This document shows positions 976 through 37,362 of a stretch of 40,091 nt of DNA, piece by piece. The notes below the pieces were generated by a model, which saw only the letters and a list, made by a program, of their open reading frames with translations, did no database searches and was not told the origin of the DNA. Source of the DNA: Escherichia phage SD6; sequence record PQ821641, one strand, 5' to 3'. Made by a program: the position numbers and the translations under genes. The first letter of the stretch is position 1. The number at the start of each line of letters is the position of its first letter.

Positions 976-1176
976 ATGGACACTATGAAACACTTAAGCA
1001 CAATCACTAATCACTATGAAATATTCGTGGACACTAAAGGTTATGCGTGGATTCAGCTTAAAGAGATGAGAGGAGCGCGTCACCGTATGGTAGTGCGCAA
1101 GGTCTCAAGCAAGCCGTTTAGCAACTACAGCGTAGATACTGTGCGTATAGACAACGAGATCTACCTGATAGACTAA
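976..1176 (+). CDS. Hypothetical early protein (66 aa)
   Basis: First ORF after the host promoters, + strand; no recognisable family; not acidic like Ocr. Confidence 0.5.
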   Translation: MDTMKHLSTITNHYEIFVDTKGYAWIQLKEMRGARHRMVVRKVSSKPFSNYSVDTVRIDNEIYLID

Positions 1177-1264
1177 CAGATAACCGTGAGTCCTACAGCG
1201 AGCGCCTCAGCTCCTTATTTCGCTAACTGAAAGTGATTAACTACAGGTCGTTAACTAATAGCGG

Positions 1265-1285
1265 CCTGACTGATAGTCACTAACT
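1265..1285 (+). repeat. 21-bp element CCTGACTGATAGTCACTAACT, copy 2, followed by TATAGG
   Basis: Exact repeat of 949-969; here it runs into ACTATAGGA, a partial phage-promoter core. Confidence 0.5.
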
Positions 1286-1299
1286 ATAGGATAAACAAG

Positions 1300-1488
1300 A
1301 TGGCATACCGTAAGATGACCAAAGCAGAAGTGATAGCCGAAGTTCTTGAAACTTTCCGCGAGTTCCCTGAGACTTTCAGAGGCGATGACATAGCAAAACA
1401 GCAGTATTGGAATGACTACACAGACAGTCTCTGCAAGTCTGGCATGATTTCCAAACACCAGTATAACACTTGGTCAAACCCATTCTAA
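1300..1488 (+). CDS. Hypothetical early protein (62 aa)
   Basis: ATG with AGGA about 9 nt upstream; early-region position. Confidence 0.55.
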   Translation: MAYRKMTKAEVIAEVLETFREFPETFRGDDIAKQQYWNDYTDSLCKSGMISKHQYNTWSNPF

Positions 1489-1504
1489 CGTAAGGAATAT
1501 AACC

Positions 1505-2029
1505 ATGAAACTGATAGGCAAAGGCGCGTTCACTAAGTGCTACCTGAAGGATTGCGGGAAGCGTGTTCTTCTGGTCTCTTCTGACCCGATAAAGGAGTGT
1601 ATGGCGTGGGGATGGTTCCCTGAGTCTCCACTGTTCCCTGAAGTCAAAATGATTGAGGTAGGCACGTATGAGATGGACTACATGCCACCAACGCGAGGTC
1701 TCAAGGCGCATTTAGATGATGACCAATGGCAGCTCTATCAGGTGCTGCGTGATTGCTTCTCACGGTCTCCGGTATTCTCTCGACCTGCTGAATTGTATCA
1801 CAAGTGGTACGAGATATTCCAAGATGCACACGACAGGTCTGCGTCTGAGACTGTGCGGGAGGGCCTGATGGATGTGCTGATGGCTCTGGATGCTTGCGCT
1901 AACTTCGGGCCAGACATTCAGTTTGAGATAAGCCCACGAAATGTACGGGCTGTGAATGGTAAGCTGATACTAGTGGATTGTTTTTTCCTTATGTCCAAAC
2001 TGCAAGAGGTGAGGTCATCAAGATGGTAA
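1505..2029 (+). CDS. Putative protein kinase-like early protein (short gp0.7-like)
   Basis: 174 aa; N-terminal IGKGAFTKCY resembles a Gly-rich loop and C-terminal ISPRNV...LILVDCFF resembles catalytic-loop/DFG-like motifs; position matches T7 gene 0.7; function tentative. Confidence 0.55.
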   Translation: MKLIGKGAFTKCYLKDCGKRVLLVSSDPIKECMAWGWFPESPLFPEVKMIEVGTYEMDYMPPTRGLKAHLDDDQWQLYQVLRDCFSRSPVFSRPAELYHKWYEIFQDAHDRSASETVREGLMDVLMALDACANFGPDIQFEISPRNVRAVNGKLILVDCFFLMSKLQEVRSSRW

Positions 2030-2199
2030 CTTATGGTCTCTGCCAGCACCACGTCGCCAACGCCCGGCTTATGGTCAGGACCGGGCAGTTAAACCATGAT
2101 GCGACTATGCGTCTCCTGAAAGCGGTCTACGAGGGCCGCAAGCTCATACACGACGCTTACACGCTGAGGACAGGTAAACATGTACCAGATAACTTATAG
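2023..2199 (+). CDS. Hypothetical small early protein (58 aa)
   Basis: ATG at 2023 overlaps the upstream stop (ATGGTAA), suggesting translational coupling; the ORF track begins this frame at a TTG at 1978. Confidence 0.4.
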   Translation: MVTYGLCQHHVANARLMVRTGQLNHDATMRLLKAVYEGRKLIHDAYTLRTGKHVPDNL

Positions 2200-2305
2200 C
2201 AGTGAACAGGCGTTCTACGAGGGATGCTACGAGATGATGAAGCGCGGGGCTTGCTATGTGGCTAATCACCATAGCCTGACCATAACGCTGACAGGTGGAT
2301 ACTGA
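2180..2305 (+). CDS. Hypothetical small early protein (41 aa)
   Basis: ATG with GAGGA about 9 nt upstream; below the ORF-track size cut-off; weak call. Confidence 0.25.
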   Translation: MYQITYSSEQAFYEGCYEMMKRGACYVANHHSLTITLTGGY

Positions 2306-2376
2306 GCGATAGACGAGAGGTCATCTAACTGATAGGTGGCCTCAAAGATTATCACTTAAATTGATAGGAGTTAACT

Positions 2377-2481
2377 ATGAGCACTGCAATCATCTGGACT
2401 ATCTCAGGCTTCGTAGCGTGGGGAATGTTTACTCTAGTAGGCAAACTACCAGTACTTACTCAACTGTTATGGGGTTTATGA
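2377..2481 (+). CDS. Hypothetical small hydrophobic peptide (34 aa)
   Basis: AGGAG 6-7 nt upstream of the ATG; hydrophobic sequence MSTAIIWTISGFVAWGMFTLVG...; its stop overlaps the next start. Confidence 0.35.
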   Translation: MSTAIIWTISGFVAWGMFTLVGKLPVLTQLLWGL

Positions 2482-2681
2482 CTATGGATATCGCACTATT
2501 GATAGCCATAGGCTATGGACTTATAGTCTACGTGCTGGTGAGAGACATCAACAAAGCGCGTAAAGTCTACAAATTCAACTATGTACGTCTGGGTCGCTGG
2601 ACTGTGCGCCAACCTAACGGACAATTCGTGCGCAACTTAGCGAACGTCTGGGATATAGCAACACTTGGGAGCAAACTATAA
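2478..2681 (+). CDS. Hypothetical small membrane protein (67 aa)
   Basis: ATGA overlap with the upstream ORF; predicted transmembrane segment IALLIAIGYGLIVYVLV. Confidence 0.45.
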   Translation: MTMDIALLIAIGYGLIVYVLVRDINKARKVYKFNYVRLGRWTVRQPNGQFVRNLANVWDIATLGSKL

Positions 2682-3007
2682 TGAACAAGTCATACGGGAT
2701 CAATCTGGTACACTCTATGGACGCAGACATGCAAATGCTAAGCCTACTGGCTACCGGGTATCGTCACGGAACGTCAAGTCACTCCGCACGTCAACAGCAG
2801 GAGAGGGACCGGGTACTGCAAGCAAGACTCCGGGCTGAGGGACATAAGTCCGAACTGATGTGTCTGGCGTATGGTGGACGACCAATCGCCGACGATGGTA
2901 AACTTCTGGTCTCAGGCTGGAAGGCGATAGACCAACGGTCAACCCTCAAGCACACGACTCACGGTGACTTCAGTCATCTTCACGCTAACCCACTGATATG
3001 CAAGTAA
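2681..3007 (+). CDS. Hypothetical early protein (108 aa)
   Basis: TAATG overlap with the upstream ORF; no recognisable family. Confidence 0.5.
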   Translation: MNKSYGINLVHSMDADMQMLSLLATGYRHGTSSHSARQQQERDRVLQARLRAEGHKSELMCLAYGGRPIADDGKLLVSGWKAIDQRSTLKHTTHGDFSHLHANPLICK

Positions 3008-3014
3008 TTCTGAC

Positions 3015-3034
3015 TTAACTATCACTATAGGACT
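3015..3034 (+). promoter_or_regulatory. Phage-RNAP promoter-like sequence directly upstream of the RNAP gene
   Basis: TTAACTATCACTATAGGACT shares the upstream half with the promoters at 26425 and 39668 and the ACTATAGG core with all others. Confidence 0.5.
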
Positions 3035-3100
3035 CAAGGTCTAAGACTCCAAGTGAAAGACCAAAGAGACTCTAAGTGAAAGACTAATAACAAGGACTTT
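3031..3100 (+). promoter_or_regulatory. Possible RNase III processing site (R1-like) in the RNAP leader
   Basis: Contains the GACTCAAGGT motif shared with the other putative RNase III hairpins, plus internal repeats CTAAGACTCCAAGTGAAAGAC / CTCTAAGTGAAAGAC. Confidence 0.3.
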
Positions 3101-3104
3101 AAGT

Positions 3105-5802: not shown

Positions 5803-6003
5803 ATGCAATTCGCACACCGTGTATCAAACGTATCTGGTGGCAACAAGGTAGTGACCGTAACCTCAGTGGCGGGCAAAGGTCTGGTCAAGGTGACTATGGT
5901 CCCGACTGGAACGGCTAAGGACAAAGGTATCAGCCATAAGGAGCTGATTCAGGTGATCCAGTGGGCACACGAGAAGGCCCTACGGGAAGAGGCAACCAAA
6001 TGA
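5803..6003 (+). CDS. Hypothetical protein (66 aa)
   Basis: ATG at 5803 with AGGAGA 6 nt upstream, immediately after the RNAP gene. Confidence 0.55.
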   Translation: MQFAHRVSNVSGGNKVVTVTSVAGKGLVKVTMVPTGTAKDKGISHKELIQVIQWAHEKALREEATK

Positions 6004-6077: not shown

Positions 6078-6100
6078 CCTAAACTATCACTATAGGATTA
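6078..6100 (+). promoter_or_regulatory. Phage promoter (phi1.1-like)
   Basis: CCTAAACTATCACTATAGGATTA matches the window-wide promoter consensus. Confidence 0.7.
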
Positions 6101-6145
6101 GACTCAAGGTCATGACTCAAAGTCGTGGCCTTCATGATTAACCCT
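6101..6145 (+). promoter_or_regulatory. Putative RNase III site (R1.1-like hairpin)
   Basis: GACTCAAGGTCAT...GTGGCCTTCATGATTA; AAGGUCA can pair with UGGCCUU; same architecture as the elements at 13588 and 37264; T7 has R1.1 at this position. Confidence 0.5.
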
Positions 6146-6171
6146 ATAACCTAAACAACTGGAGCTACAAC

Positions 6172-6351
6172 ATGTATCAGAACACTATCAACTTCGAGCG
6201 CATCCGTGAACGTCAGAAGACTGAAGGTTACATTCCGAAGGGCCGCAAGCTGAACAAGACCAAGCGTGGCGGCGGTGTCAAGGGTGCCTTCCGTAACGCT
6301 GAGGGTAAAGACTCTCTGGTTAACCAAGCGAAATACTTCGCAGGAGCATAA
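6172..6351 (+). CDS. gp1.1-like small basic protein
   Basis: 59 aa; contains KGRKLNKTKR, as in T7 gp1.1; correct syntenic position. Confidence 0.65.
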   Translation: MYQNTINFERIRERQKTEGYIPKGRKLNKTKRGGGVKGAFRNAEGKDSLVNQAKYFAGA

Positions 6352-6660: not shown

Positions 6661-7701
6661 ATGACAACTATCAAAACTAACCCGCACCGCGCTGTAGATT
6701 ACTCTGAGTCTGGCATTAAGAAGGCACTGGAAGCAGCCGGGTCTCTGGAAGCTGAAGTGAAGTATGATGGTGTCAGGTTGAATATTCCGGTGCTGCGAGA
6801 GGGTGAGACCTATTGGTTAAGCCGTGAGTCTAAACCGCTTCCAGCACTGGAGTGGATGAACTCTGAGTTAGGCAATGCGTGGACTCAAGCTGACTGGCGA
6901 TGGTTCCTGCGTCAAGCTGGGTACGAAGGCGTGGGCCTGATGATTGACGGAGAGGTCATGGTAAAAGGTGTTGACTTTAACACGTCTTCCGGTCTCATCC
7001 GAACGAAGTGGCTGAAGCCTAGCAACGAGGAGTTCGCTGAATGTTATCCGGGCCGTGGCAAGAAGGTCCCATTCTGGGTCGCACGGTCACTACTTCAGGT
7101 TGTGGTATATGGCGTTGTTGATATGACAACCATAGCAGACCCGAAAGCCGAAGGTCCTATCCATAGCGTAACCCGACTGAAGGCCGAAGCCATCGTCCCT
7201 CTCCTCCAGAAATACTTCCCGGAAATCGACTGGGTTCTGTCTGAGTCACACACGGTCTACGACCTTGAGTCGCTCAACTCCCTGTACGAAGAGAAGCGTC
7301 TTGAAGGACATGAGGGTCTGGTAGTCAAGGACCCGCTTGGTAAATACAAGCGTGGCAAGAAGTCAGGCATGTGGAAGATGAAGCCTGAGGAGACCATCGA
7401 CGGGACCGTGTGTGGACTCGTGTGGGGGACTCCGGGAAAGGCTAACGAAGGTAAGGTGATTGGCTTCGAGGTGCTGCTTGAGGATGGCATGATGGTTAAC
7501 GCCTGCGGTCTGACTGAAGAACAGAAGGATGAGTTTACGGAAGCCTGTAACACTGATACATATATTCTCGGTGGAATCAATCCATACGAAGGATGGCAGT
7601 GTGAAGTCCTCTTCATGGAGCGGTTCCCAGATGGTTCCCTTCGTCATCCTAGCTTCAAGTGCTGGCGTGGAACGGAAGACAATCCAACCGTTAAGAGTTA
7701 A
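6661..7701 (+). CDS. ATP-dependent DNA ligase (gene 1.3)
   Basis: 346 aa; T7-ligase-like IKTNP...KYDGVR (adenylation lysine), GEVMVKGVDFNTSSGL, EGHEGLVVKDP and GSLRHPSF motifs. Confidence 0.97.
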   Translation: MTTIKTNPHRAVDYSESGIKKALEAAGSLEAEVKYDGVRLNIPVLREGETYWLSRESKPLPALEWMNSELGNAWTQADWRWFLRQAGYEGVGLMIDGEVMVKGVDFNTSSGLIRTKWLKPSNEEFAECYPGRGKKVPFWVARSLLQVVVYGVVDMTTIADPKAEGPIHSVTRLKAEAIVPLLQKYFPEIDWVLSESHTVYDLESLNSLYEEKRLEGHEGLVVKDPLGKYKRGKKSGMWKMKPEETIDGTVCGLVWGTPGKANEGKVIGFEVLLEDGMMVNACGLTEEQKDEFTEACNTDTYILGGINPYEGWQCEVLFMERFPDGSLRHPSFKCWRGTEDNPTVKS

Positions 7702-7712
7702 CTAAACGTCAA

Positions 7713-7753
7713 CCCAGTGGTCTTCTGACTGCTGGGATTCTTTGCTTTGTGTT
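7713..7753 (+). terminator. Putative early intrinsic terminator (TE-like) after the ligase gene
   Basis: Hairpin CCCAGUGG-loop-CUGCUGGG with G-U pairs, followed by the U-rich AUUCUUUGCUUUGUGUU; T7 TE lies at the equivalent position. Confidence 0.45.
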
Positions 7754-11394: not shown

Positions 11395-11610
11395 ATGATT
11401 AAACTCATCGAATTTCTTGGTCGTCTGGTGGTGCGTGGCTATCGTCGTGCTGCGGTACTGGAACGAAAGGTAGAAAAGAAGACTGCTGACGGTGCGGCTG
11501 ATGCTGCTGCTCTGGCTGACAAGTTGGCCATCGCGTCACTGGAAGCTGGCATGAAGGCACGTCAAGCTGACACCAAAGCTGACCAGTTGGCTCAGTTCTT
11601 CAAAGACTAA
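11395..11610 (+). CDS. Hypothetical protein (71 aa)
   Basis: AAGGAG upstream of the ATG; Ala-rich, probably helical; lies between the lysozyme and primase genes. Confidence 0.6.
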   Translation: MIKLIEFLGRLVVRGYRRAAVLERKVEKKTADGAADAAALADKLAIASLEAGMKARQADTKADQLAQFFKD

Positions 11611-11626
11611 ACTATCACCTTAGGGA
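11607..11626 (+). promoter_or_regulatory. Phage promoter variant (ACCTTAGGG core) upstream of gene 4
   Basis: CTAAACTATCACCTTAGGGA differs from consensus at two core positions. Confidence 0.45.
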
Positions 11627-11675
11627 TGGGACCACGAGTCCTGTCCCTCTGTTCGCATTATTGATTAAGGAGTGA

Positions 11676-13420: not shown

Positions 13421-13585
13421 GTGCTAAAGAAACTTAAAGCTCGCTACCATCGGTTCATGTACAAATGGTGGAGCGATGAAGCAACCTGCCTGTCGAACAT
13501 TCTGGGAGACCAAAGGTTCGACTCTAAGGCATGGAAGAAAGCTAACCGGAAGTTTATGTATCACTTCTTGCGTACAGACTTCTAG
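13421..13585 (+). CDS. Hypothetical small protein (54 aa, GTG start)
   Basis: GGAGG about 6 nt upstream of a GTG; fills the gap between gene 4 and gene 5; weak call. Confidence 0.3.
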   Translation: MLKKLKARYHRFMYKWWSDEATCLSNILGDQRFDSKAWKKANRKFMYHFLRTDF

Positions 13586-13587
13586 GT

Positions 13588-13632
13588 CTAGACTCAAGGT
13601 CATTCACATCGAGTGGCCTTTATGATTAGACT
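13588..13632 (+). promoter_or_regulatory. Putative RNase III site (R4.7-like hairpin) upstream of the DNA polymerase gene
   Basis: TAGACTCAAGGTCAT-TCACATCGAG-TGGCCTTTATGATTAGACT, imperfect inverted repeat with the shared GACTCAAGGT motif. Confidence 0.5.
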
Positions 13633-13648
13633 AAACGGAGGATTAACC

Positions 13649-18066: not shown

Positions 18067-18088
18067 CTAAACTATCACTATAGGGACT
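18067..18088 (+). promoter_or_regulatory. Phage promoter (phi6.5-like)
   Basis: CTAAACTATCACTATAGGGACT. Confidence 0.7.
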
Positions 18089-19323: not shown

Positions 19324-20892
19324 ATGGCTGAACGTGAAGGATTTGCTGCTGAAGGCGCGAAGGCAGTTTATGATAGACTGAAGAACGGTAGACAGCCATA
19401 TGAGACAAGAGCTCAGAACTGCGCTGCCGTGACCATCCCCTCGCTATTTCCTAAGGAGTCCGACAACTCGTCTACGGAATACGTGACGCCGTGGCAATCT
19501 GTGGGTGCTCGCTGCTTGAACAACTTGGCTGCAAAGCTGATGTTGGCATTATTCCCTCAGTCACCGTGGATGCGACTGACAGTCTCCGAATATGAGGCAA
19601 AGACCTTGAGTCAGGACTCAGAGGCTGCTGCTCGTGTTGACGAAGGGCTCGCTATGGTCGAGCGTGTATTGATGGCCTACATGGAGACTAACAGTTTCCG
19701 TGTGCCATTGTTCGAAGCTCTGAAGCAGCTTATCGTCTCCGGTAACTGTCTGCTCTACATTCCAGAGCCTGAACAGGGAACCTACAGTCCTATGCGAATG
19801 TACCGCTTAGTGTCGTACGTTGTTCAACGTGATGCTTTCGGTAATATCTTGCAGATTGTGACTCTCGACAAGGTAGCGTTTAGTGCTCTGCCGGAAGACG
19901 TTAAGTCACAACTCAACTCAGAAGACTATGAGCCTGACACCGAGCTGGAAGTGTATACGCACATCTACCGTCAGGACGACGAGTATCTGCGCTATGAGGA
20001 AGTGGAAGGCATTGAGGTAGCAGGGACCGAGGGTTCCTACCCACTGACTGCATGTCCATACATCCCGGTACGAATGGTTCGACTGGATGGTGAAGACTAT
20101 GGTCGTTCTTACTGCGAGGAGTATCTGGGAGACCTGAACTCTCTGGAGACGATTACAGAAGCTATCACCAAAATGGCTAAGGTAGCCTCCAAGGTGGTGG
20201 GCCTCGTTAACCCGAACGGTATCACGCAACCACGTCGTCTGAACAAGGCGGCTACAGGTGAGTTCGTGGCTGGTCGCGTAGAGGACATCAACTTCCTGCA
20301 ACTGACGAAAGGTCAGGACTTTACGATTGCAAAGTCGGTGGCTGACGCTATCGAGCAACGTTTAGGCTGGGCCTTCCTTCTTAATAGTGCTGTTCAGCGT
20401 AATGCCGAGCGAGTAACTGCTGAAGAGATTCGTTATGTTGCTGGCGAACTGGAGGCGACCTTAGGTGGCGTGTACTCAGTGCAGTCACAAGAGCTTCAGT
20501 TGCCTGTCGTCCGTGTGCTGATTAACCAGCTTCAGTCTGCTGGCACGATTCCTGACCTTCCGAAAGAAGCGGTAGAGCCTACGGTATCCACCGGTCTGGA
20601 AGCATTAGGTCGTGGTCAGGACTTGGAGAAGCTAACTCAGGCAGTCAACATGATGACCGGTCTACAGCCTCTGCAACAGGACCCAGACATTAACTTGCCG
20701 ACCCTGAAGCTGCGACTGCTGAATGCCTTAGGCATTGACACTGCTGGTCTTCTACTGACTCAGGACGAGAAGATGCAACGTATTGCTGAACAATCCGCTC
20801 AAGGAGCTGTGGTCAACGGTGCGTCTGCTGCTGGTGCTAACATGGGTGCTGCTGTAGGTCAGGGAGCTGGTGAGGACATGGCTCAAGCCTAA
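19324..20892 (+). CDS. Portal (head-to-tail connector) protein (gene 8)
   Basis: 522 aa, collinear with T7 gp8 (YETRAQNCA, TPWQSVGAR, YRLVSYVVQRDAFGN, ERVTAEEIRYVAGELE). Confidence 0.97.
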   Translation: MAEREGFAAEGAKAVYDRLKNGRQPYETRAQNCAAVTIPSLFPKESDNSSTEYVTPWQSVGARCLNNLAAKLMLALFPQSPWMRLTVSEYEAKTLSQDSEAAARVDEGLAMVERVLMAYMETNSFRVPLFEALKQLIVSGNCLLYIPEPEQGTYSPMRMYRLVSYVVQRDAFGNILQIVTLDKVAFSALPEDVKSQLNSEDYEPDTELEVYTHIYRQDDEYLRYEEVEGIEVAGTEGSYPLTACPYIPVRMVRLDGEDYGRSYCEEYLGDLNSLETITEAITKMAKVASKVVGLVNPNGITQPRRLNKAATGEFVAGRVEDINFLQLTKGQDFTIAKSVADAIEQRLGWAFLLNSAVQRNAERVTAEEIRYVAGELEATLGGVYSVQSQELQLPVVRVLINQLQSAGTIPDLPKEAVEPTVSTGLEALGRGQDLEKLTQAVNMMTGLQPLQQDPDINLPTLKLRLLNALGIDTAGLLLTQDEKMQRIAEQSAQGAVVNGASAAGANMGAAVGQGAGEDMAQA

Positions 20893-20989: not shown

Positions 20990-21874
20990 ATGTCTCAATC
21001 AGTTTATGCCGAGTTTGGCGTTAGCTCTAATGCAATCACTGGTTCCGTTGAGGACCTGAACGAACACCAGAAGTCTATGCTTGAACAGGACGTAGCTGTT
21101 CGTGATGGCGATGACGCTATTACCTTCAAGCAAATGGAAGCCGAAAACGAAGAGGCTATCGAAGAAGACGAGAACGTCGAAGAGACTGAAGGTGAAGAAG
21201 ACCACGAGTCAGATGACGAAGAGTCTGAGACCGGTGGTGAGCAGCCGGAGTTCATCGAACTGGGTGATGCACCAAAAGAGCTTACCGAAAGTGTCACCGC
21301 TCTGGATGAAAACGAAGCTGCATTCGACGACATGGTGTCTTCTGCTGTAGAAGCTGGCAAGGTCACTGCTGATGAAATTACCGCTATCAAGGCTGAATAC
21401 GCCAAGGATGGTAAGCTGTCTGACGCATCCTACGCTAAGTTGCAGGAAGCAGGTTACACCAAGCGCTTCGTAGATTCGTTTGTCCGTGGTCAGGAAGCTC
21501 TGGCTGAACAGTATGCTGCTGGTGTGGTTCGCTACGCTGGTGGTGCTGAACAGTTTAATCGCATCCTGTCACACCTTGAGTCAACCGACCCGTCAACTCG
21601 TGAAGCACTGGAAGCTGCTATCGTTCGTAAGGACATTGCGACTACCAAGGCTCTGCTGAATCTGGCTGGCAAGACTCTTGGTAAAGCTGTAGGCGTTAAA
21701 CCTCAGCGTACCATCACCACTCAGGCCAAACCTGTGGTAGCACCTAAGGCTCCTCAGACCGAAGCATTCAGCTCTAAAGCTGACATGATTAAGGCTATGA
21801 GTGACCCGAGATACCTGCGTGACGCTAAGTACACGATGGAAGTTCGAGCTAAGGTAGCTGCATCAAGCCTGTAG
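20990..21874 (+). CDS. Capsid assembly scaffolding protein (gene 9)
   Basis: 294 aa, highly acidic and low-complexity, between the portal and capsid genes. Confidence 0.9.
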   Translation: MSQSVYAEFGVSSNAITGSVEDLNEHQKSMLEQDVAVRDGDDAITFKQMEAENEEAIEEDENVEETEGEEDHESDDEESETGGEQPEFIELGDAPKELTESVTALDENEAAFDDMVSSAVEAGKVTADEITAIKAEYAKDGKLSDASYAKLQEAGYTKRFVDSFVRGQEALAEQYAAGVVRYAGGAEQFNRILSHLESTDPSTREALEAAIVRKDIATTKALLNLAGKTLGKAVGVKPQRTITTQAKPVVAPKAPQTEAFSSKADMIKAMSDPRYLRDAKYTMEVRAKVAASSL

Positions 21875-21876
21875 GA

Positions 21877-21898
21877 CTAAACTATCACTATAGGGAGA
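21877..21898 (+). promoter_or_regulatory. Phage promoter (phi10-like), best consensus match
   Basis: CTAAACTATCACTATAGGGAGA, with a GGTTTCCC-containing leader resembling the T7 gene 10 leader. Confidence 0.8.
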
Positions 21899-22001
21899 CC
21901 AAGAGACAGACTCAAGGTTTCCCCTATTACTTCAGTCCATACGGATTGGGCGTACAGTAAGTAATACACTTTATCTTTCAATTGAATAGGAGAATTATCA
22001 T

Positions 22002-26400: not shown

Positions 26401-26424
26401 CTTATTGAATGGCCTATAGATTTA

Positions 26425-26447
26425 CCTTAACTATCACTATAGGGACT
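26425..26447 (+). promoter_or_regulatory. Phage promoter (phi13-like)
   Basis: CCTTAACTATCACTATAGGGACT. Confidence 0.7.
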
Positions 26448-26476
26448 ATAGGCCCTTAAGGTTATAAGGAGCCTTT

Positions 26477-37001: not shown

Positions 37002-37261
37002 CGCAGATGGACTTAGAGAAGTTCCTCTTAATGCTAGATACTGAACGTGCTCGACTCATGCTGCAAGACCTGCGGGATGACTCTAAGCGTTCACCTCAGC
37101 TTTACAACGCCATTGAGAAGCTACTGGCTCGTCACAACTTCGTGCTAAGCAAGGTGTCTGTTGACGAGAAGACGCTCGCTGATATGGAGGCCCTGAACGC
37201 AGAGTACGATAAGGTGCTTTCAGCGACTGAGGATAATGACACCGGGTATGGCGTTCAATAA
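36998..37261 (+). CDS. Terminase small subunit / DNA maturation protein A (gene 18)
   Basis: 87 aa; RSPQLYNAIEKLLARHNF as in T7 gp18; start overlaps the holin stop. Confidence 0.85.
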   Translation: MTQMDLEKFLLMLDTERARLMLQDLRDDSKRSPQLYNAIEKLLARHNFVLSKVSVDEKTLADMEALNAEYDKVLSATEDNDTGYGVQ

Positions 37262-37263
37262 GT

Positions 37264-37312
37264 GTTAGACTCAAGGTCATTACTATGTGTAGTGGCCTTT
37301 ATGGTTAACACT
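37264..37312 (+). promoter_or_regulatory. Putative RNase III site (R18.5-like hairpin)
   Basis: GTGTTAGACTCAAGGTCAT-TACTATGTGT-AGTGGCCTTTATGGTTAACAC; outer GUGUUA/UAACAC and inner AAGGUCA/UGGCCUU can pair. Confidence 0.5.
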
Positions 37313-37362
37313 AACTAGTGGAGGAGACTCTACGTGAGATCTGATAAACCGGGAGGGCAACT

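Follow-up and report, generated by a model that had tools for sequence, protein, structure and literature searches.

What the hairpins that share a conserved motif do in the transcripts of Escherichia phage SD6, and why they recur before gene 1.1, gene 5, and gene 18.5, is the question raised by positions 6,101 to 6,145 of its genome. That T7-group transcripts are processed by RNase III is textbook knowledge dating from the 1970s-80s, and a preliminary description of the sequence proposed that these hairpins are probably host RNase III processing sites. The window referred to throughout is the whole stretch of DNA analysed (record PQ821641; 40,091 nucleotides), a complete K1F-like (Kayfunavirus) genome of the T7 group that is, between 5 and 15 kb, ~94% identical to Kayfunavirus phages such as Escherichia phage Vec13, and whose gene order matches that of T7, T3, and K1F. 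Its + strand carries 11 phage-polymerase promoters with the core AACTATCACTATAGG and, 3' of the ligase gene, a TE-like terminator found by a terminator scan at 7713-7736. Near the left end, at 98-136 and 400-497, are short direct repeats based on ACCTACAGTC, including exact copies at four positions (414, 430, 446, and 475; a 16-nt period in some), which resemble the short repeat arrays adjoining the terminal repeat in T7-group genomes.

The repeated 10-mer and the hairpins of the window

Promoter words aside, GACTCAAGGT is the top repeated 10-mer of the window, with exact + strand copies at 3031, 6101, 13591, 21909, and 37268, five occurrences against 0.08-0.42 expected under Markov models of orders 1-5. 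The positions given in the preliminary description are exact for four of these copies, and the fifth, placed there at 21905, lies 4 nt further on. Three of the copies stand within a common architecture, just as had been described, in which AGACTCAAGGTCAT is followed after 9-11 nt by GTGGCCTT(T/C)ATG(A/G)TTA (6100-6140, 13590-13628, and 37267-37307).

Membership of a wider family was assessed with a covariance model built from T7 alone, for which the seven T7 sites were aligned and their consensus structure taken, and with which the window was searched with filters off. The three hairpins score between 45.4 and 54.7 bits (E 2e-10 to 3.5e-8). Across the whole window, six + strand elements reach 26-55 bits and everything else remains below 14 bits, so the family in the window has six members, including three in the early region that had previously been overlooked. 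These are listed below with their fold energies and z-scores.

6088-6151, + strand: R1.1-type hairpin before gene 1.1 (ATG 6172); 45.4 bits, E 3.5e-8; -22.8 kcal/mol, z = -6.0
13578-13639, + strand: R4.7-type hairpin between a gp4.3-like ORF (13421-13585) and gene 5 (ATG 13649); 49.9 bits, E 2.9e-9; -19.4 kcal/mol, z = -2.8
37255-37318, + strand: R18.5-type hairpin between gene 18 (ends 37261) and gene 18.5 (ATG 37363); 54.7 bits, E 2e-10; -23.4 kcal/mol, z = -3.3
903-971, + strand: early RNase III-type hairpin at the R0.3 position, before the first early ORF (976); 26.0 bits, E 0.0017; -22.7 kcal/mol, z = -3.2
1226-1287, + strand: early RNase III-type hairpin before the ORF at 1300; 51.1 bits, E 1.5e-9; -22.0 kcal/mol, z = -5.6
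2299-2362, + strand: early RNase III-type hairpin between the ORF at 2180-2305 and the ORF at 2377; 36.4 bits, E 5.2e-6; -22.1 kcal/mol, z = -5.0

RNA folding, which had been suggested as a check on the three hairpins first described, yields stable stems for all of them (-19.4 to -23.4 kcal/mol), each consisting of a lower stem, an asymmetric internal loop, an upper stem, and a small loop. In centroid fold, all six window elements agree with T7 R1.1, R4.7, and R18.5, having two coaxial helices (lower ~8-10 bp, upper 10-12 bp) and an internal loop of 4 nt on the 5' side and 5 nt on the 3' side. The element at 1226-1287 carries a T7 R1-like variant of the core, ACAGGUC...GGCCUGA, and the weakest member, at 903-971, has orthologous matches in K1F, Vec13, and EcoDS1.

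The placement before genes 1.1, 5, and 18.5 is borne out by protein matches: the ORF at 6172 has a Pfam Phage_1_1 match, 13649 is the start of DNA polymerase A, and the hairpin at 37255-37318 is flanked by the small terminase subunit and an Rz-like spanin. A 49-aa ORF (13476-13625) overlaps the RNA element before gene 5 and is probably spurious; the hairpin upstream of gene 5 is likewise covered by an annotated 'hypothetical protein' in some Kayfunavirus GenBank records. At 6088-6151, a phage promoter (6082-6096, transcription start G6095) overlaps the lower stem on its 5' side, and therefore read-through transcripts and those initiated at the promoter both carry the site. In its apical stem (6114-6124) the gene-1.1 hairpin nearly copies the motif, with GACTCAAAGTC after GACTCAAGGTCAT, which suggests a small internal duplication.

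Since they are G+C-containing hairpins situated between genes, these elements might instead be read as sites at which host or phage RNA polymerase terminates or pauses. They have no U-tract, their 3' flanks reading GAUUA..., and none of them is reported by the terminator scan, which does detect the TE-type terminator at 7713-7736; the genes 3' of each hairpin, moreover, need read-through. The missing U-tracts and the negative scan exclude terminators, and the probability left to this reading is practically nil.

Two of the five + strand copies of the 10-mer fall outside the hairpin family:

3031-3040, + strand: copy in a promoter leader, +2 to +11, without a 3' arm
21909-21918, + strand: copy forming the loop and 3' arm of a phi10-type 5' leader stem-loop

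The first lies in the leader of the promoter at 3017-3031, upstream of gene 1, which is also annotated in EcoDS1; a phage-polymerase promoter thus stands directly before the phage RNA polymerase gene in the window and in EcoDS1, whereas T7 has none there. The 3031 stretch folds no better than shuffled sequences (z = +0.41) and, when searched alone, reaches 3.7 bits with the T7-site model, and on these values its interpretation as a decayed R1 site was rejected. In the unstructured leader of the gene 1 promoter, within 3017-3104, the 5' half of the RNase III motif comes first, and a direct repeat, AAGTGAAAGAC, lies at 3051 and 3074. In the second, GGGAGACC (21893-21900) pairs with GGUUUCCC (21916-21923) to form the leader stem-loop (21893-21923), and the 21909 region has no match to the T7-site covariance model. 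Hence the motif family of five in the preliminary description stands for its three hairpins, but its remaining two members are promoter-leader sequences.

Relationship to the RNase III sites of T7 and other phages

R1.1 RNA is the standard substrate of Escherichia coli RNase III, and the sequence of the window hairpins is that of R1.1 and its companion sites. With an arrow marking the cleavage position, known or predicted, T7 R0.5 reads AGACTCAAGGTCGCTCCTAGCGAGTGGCCTTTAT↓GATTA and R1.1 reads AAACTCAAGGTCATTCGCAAGAGTGGCCTTTAT↓GATTG, with R4.7 and R18.5 being close variants. As RNA, all four share with the window hairpins the core ACUCAAGGUC...GUGGCCUUUAU↓GAUU, or in more general form ACUCAAGGUC(A/G)...GUGGCCUU(U/C)AU↓GAUU; the DNA pattern ACTCAAGGTC...GTGGCCTT(T/C)ATGATT is common to the window sites and to T7 R0.5, R1.1, and R4.7, and occurs as a variant in R18.5. 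When the 62-nt element before gene 5 was used as a blastn query, 452 phage records were matched, including T7 and T3/T7M, and the matches in T3/T7M fall on features annotated 'RNase III recognition site R0.5'. The earlier view of the primary sequence as peculiar to this phage lineage must therefore be abandoned, because the same core in T7's own sites makes the motif the core of the T7 RNase III site.

The likeness extends to the two-helix fold with its internal loop, to the proximal, middle, and distal boxes (pb, mb, and db), and to the intergenic position on the sense strand. Fold energies are similar, at -19 to -23 kcal/mol in the window and -22 to -24 kcal/mol for the T7 sites, and all 11 upper-stem pairs of 13578-13639 are identical to those of T7 R1.1. 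The window elements differ from the T7 sites in the sequences of their lower stems and apical loops, with compensatory changes, and the gene-1.1 site differs from T7 R1.1 in the apical near-duplicate of the motif (GACUCAAAGUC).

Distribution was examined in the reference genomes of T7, T3, phiYeO3-12, K1F, EcoDS1, Vec13, K11, and gh-1. The T7-only model recovers eight of the ten stem-loops annotated as 'RNase III recognition site' in T3, together with the corresponding putative sites of phiYeO3-12. Orthologous sites detected by it number six in K1F, six in Vec13, and five in EcoDS1, and K11 has several sites. None of the 13 'putative RNase III recognition sites' annotated in Pseudomonas phage gh-1 matches the T7-trained model, and for this reason the sequence family seems to be confined to phages of enterobacteria. 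In 709 kb of unrelated IMG/VR viral contigs, pre-selected for AAGGTC N6-22 GTGGCCTT, the same model gave a single marginal match of 31 bits; the IMG/VR scan with that pattern itself returned mostly chance matches in unrelated contigs. A search for related loci with gp18.5 retrieved near-identical relatives only. An Rfam scan of the whole window gave no matches at the gathering score, and Rfam 15 appears to be without a family for T7-group RNase III sites.

The sites are syntenic with those of T7 and T3. The preliminary description placed them exactly where T7 has R1.1, R4.7, and R18.5, which is correct except that the gene-5 site follows the T3 arrangement: R4.7 lies directly before gene 5 in T3 and in the window, but before gene 4.7 in T7, a gene that is absent here. 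T3 and phiYeO3-12, whose annotated recognition stem-loops include R0.3, R0.5/R0.45, R1, R1.1, R1.3, R4.7, and R18.5, otherwise share the layout of the window, with phi1.1 overlapping the 5' side of R1.1 and with R18.5 between genes 18 and 18.5. T7 has R1 and R1.3, equivalents of which were not found in the window with the T7-only model or by folding; a phage promoter stands before gene 1 instead. The records of T3 and phiYeO3-12 annotate ten sites, compared with six of the internal-loop class and one probable R3.8-type site in the window. The latter and a weaker candidate are as follows:

11622-11650, + strand: probable R3.8-type site, an 11-bp hairpin at 11622-11648 followed by the conserved CCCUCU↓GUUCGC
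26411-26453, + strand: weak R13-type hairpin, GGCCUAUAG/CUAUAGGCC, 9 bp, enclosing the promoter at 26429-26443

The hairpin at 11622-11650 (-17.6 kcal/mol, z = -2.5) opens the transcript that starts from the promoter at 11610-11624 and aligns with T7 R3.8 and with the annotated R3.8 stem-loops of T3 and phiYeO3-12; on this alignment it is probably the R3.8 equivalent, a separate sub-class without an internal loop. The element at 26411-26453 is possibly an R13-type hairpin, as it encloses the gene-13 promoter in the way that the annotated T3 R13 encloses phi13, but its fold is no better than that of shuffled sequences (z = -1.2) and it scores 11 bits. An R6.5 equivalent around the promoter at 18070 was rejected (z = -0.15, no model match). 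R3.8, R6.5, and R13 have neither the GACUCAAGGU core nor the internal loop, and so stand outside the motif family originally described.

Other E. coli RNase III substrates are served by the same enzyme and have the same need for about two helical turns. In the rRNA precursor stems and the lambda sib and N leader substrates, cleavage mostly affects both strands of a regular helix, and to our knowledge these substrates have no primary sequence in common with the T7-type hairpins.

Covariation, strand, and copies within coding regions

Pairing in the family is supported by covariation in two alignments. The first, made with MAFFT from 27 sites and independent of the model, has 96.6% of its cells paired and shows compensatory changes at 10 of 16 pairs; its covariation score of 0.47 compares with 0.18 for shuffles and no more than 0.10 for slid partners. 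The second, which comprises 66 sites and was fitted to the model, has 93.5% paired, with compensatory changes at 16 of 19 pairs. None of the shuffle and slid controls attains the observed values. The lower stems within the window differ from one another and yet are complementary (GUGUUA/UAACAC, GGUCUA/UAGACU, and GGAUUA/UAACCC), and variation of this kind, in which complementarity is kept, indicates selection on RNA pairing and not on DNA identity.

These observations bear on whether the elements might act as DNA, for example, in linking gene modules for recombination or in forming replication-origin structures, with the RNA fold being incidental. Such a role would agree with a core of ~40 nt that is near-identical in several genera and located at gene-module boundaries, and with the position of the gene-1.1 copy at the place of the T7/T3 primary origin. 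It is at odds with the divergent but complementary lower stems just described and with the strand specificity of the signal, since the conserved G.U pairs would be A.C mismatches on the other strand and the element at 37255-37318 scores 54.7 bits on the + strand but only 13.5 bits on the - strand. The conserved U.G pairs and the difference in score thus identify a sense-strand RNA element, and a role exerted through DNA is extremely improbable.

The 10-mer GACTCAAGGT also occurs on the - strand in three exact copies (7262, 19603, and 21573), which were overlooked in the preliminary description. On the + strand they read ACCTTGAGTC (7262-7271, 19603-19612, and 21573-21582) and fall within the coding sequences of ligase, gene 8, and gene 9, three being observed where 0.05-0.32 are expected. 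All three are kept in Vec13, K1F, and EcoDS1, among which local divergence is too low for a test of selection, and they are absent from T7 and T3. Word bias in a genome rich in GACT and AGGT, or chance, is a possible explanation. The near letter-for-letter conservation of the core across genera, together with the kept ACCUUGAGUC copies, makes a second function of the core conceivable, in which the reverse-complement ACCUUGAGUC copies would pair over long range with the 5' arm of the hairpins, or the sequences would serve as recombination linkers at the DNA level; we give this little credence and consider it highly unlikely. Were long-range pairing of the coding-region copies with the hairpins to occur, it could modulate processing or translation.

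RNase III recognition, predicted cleavage, and significance

The features by which E. coli RNase III recognizes R1.1 have been defined by Pertzev and Nicholson as an 11-bp helix with three boxes (PMC1540722). In R1.1 numbering, the distal box is UA, UG and the middle box U12:G27, C13:G26, while the proximal box consists of G-C, A-U, A-U, and then A-U or U-A adjoining the cut (PMC1540722). Natural R1.1 has a U.C pair at this last position, where G-C blocks catalysis (PMC1540722). Internal loops limit the enzyme to a single phosphodiester, and the 3' hairpin that remains protects against 3'-5' exonucleases (PMC1540722). Early and late T7 precursors are processed by RNase III in this manner, R1.1 RNA being cut once (PMC4858673).

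In the three hairpins before genes 1.1, 5, and 18.5, the boxes are identical to those of R1.1 (pb G-C, A-U, A-U; mb U-G, C-G; db A-U, U-G), a set that E. coli RNase III recognizes optimally (PMC1540722), and the pair adjoining the predicted cut is C.U in the 13591 and 37268 hairpins and C.C, like that of T7 R4.7, in the 6101 hairpin. This bears directly on the possibility that the hairpins are structural elements of the mRNA that RNase III does not cleave, acting as exonuclease barriers or as sites that are bound but not cut. Their stable folds would suit such elements, and variants that bind RNase III yet resist cleavage are known, for example, those with G-C at position 4 of the proximal box (PMC1540722). 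The recognition boxes here are all the same as in R1.1, and the cut adjoins a C.U or C.C pair, of the kind present in T7 R1.1 and R4.7, which are cleaved efficiently, and not G-C; because this catalytic antideterminant is absent, binding without cleavage is disfavoured, and we regard structural elements of this kind as very unlikely.

Predicted cleavage positions were obtained by projection from T7. The T7 positions 5887, 13892, and 36856 share one alignment column. They are among the ten positions, at each of which the T7 sequence was read, that we take to be the RNase III cuts of T7 (Dunn and Studier, 1983) and that the T7 record does not annotate; that assignment has indirect corroboration from the shared column, the T3 annotations, and the base numbers used in PMC1540722. 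Projection of the column predicts cleavage after 6135, 13623, and 37302 and, in the early region, after 955, 1271, and 2346. At 6088-6151, the predicted cut is after U6135, within GGCCUUCAU↓GAUUA, and in the hairpins before genes 5 and 18.5 it is after U13623 and U37302. The predicted cuts fall 20-60 nt upstream of the next start codon, as they do in T7.

The proposal that these are host RNase III processing sites is strongly supported by the shared core, the T7-only model, the covariation, the boxes, and the synteny, with cleavage itself being predicted. We consider it highly probable that the hairpins are T7-group signals for processing by host RNase III, with T7 R0.3/R0.5/R1/R1.1/R4.7/R18.5 as their homologues, and we infer cleavage, its exact position, and its effect on message stability from that homology. 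Polycistronic + strand transcripts would be made by host RNA polymerase as far as the terminator at ~7713-7736 and then by the phage polymerase from the 11 promoters, and each element would fold during transcription into a coaxially stacked helix of ~20 bp broken by the asymmetric internal loop. E. coli RNase III would read the proximal, middle, and distal boxes of the upper stem and, because of the internal loop, would cut a single phosphodiester on the 3' side at the six predicted positions. The upstream message would be left with a stable 3' hairpin able to resist 3'-5' exonucleases, and the downstream message would begin 20-60 nt before the next start codon. The T7 gp0.7 kinase stimulates RNase III. 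A gp0.7-type kinase was not found by Pfam in the early ORFs tested (976-3007), so processing efficiency may differ from that in T7, and phage SD6 may rely on unstimulated host RNase III.

The hairpins are ordinary members, plain orthologues, of the already known T7-group family of RNase III sites. Among the papers covered by a literature search, none dealt with RNase III in Kayfunavirus, and a search under the site names gave nothing relevant; the records of K1F, EcoDS1, and Vec13 annotate no RNase III sites. As these records lack such annotation and Rfam appears to lack a family, the new content is annotation only; its scientific value is small and its practical value is that of annotation. 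A covariance model built from T7 alone would annotate such sites across the enterobacterial Studiervirinae, and the predicted cut sites would be useful in engineering K1F-type therapeutic phages and in reading their transcriptomes.
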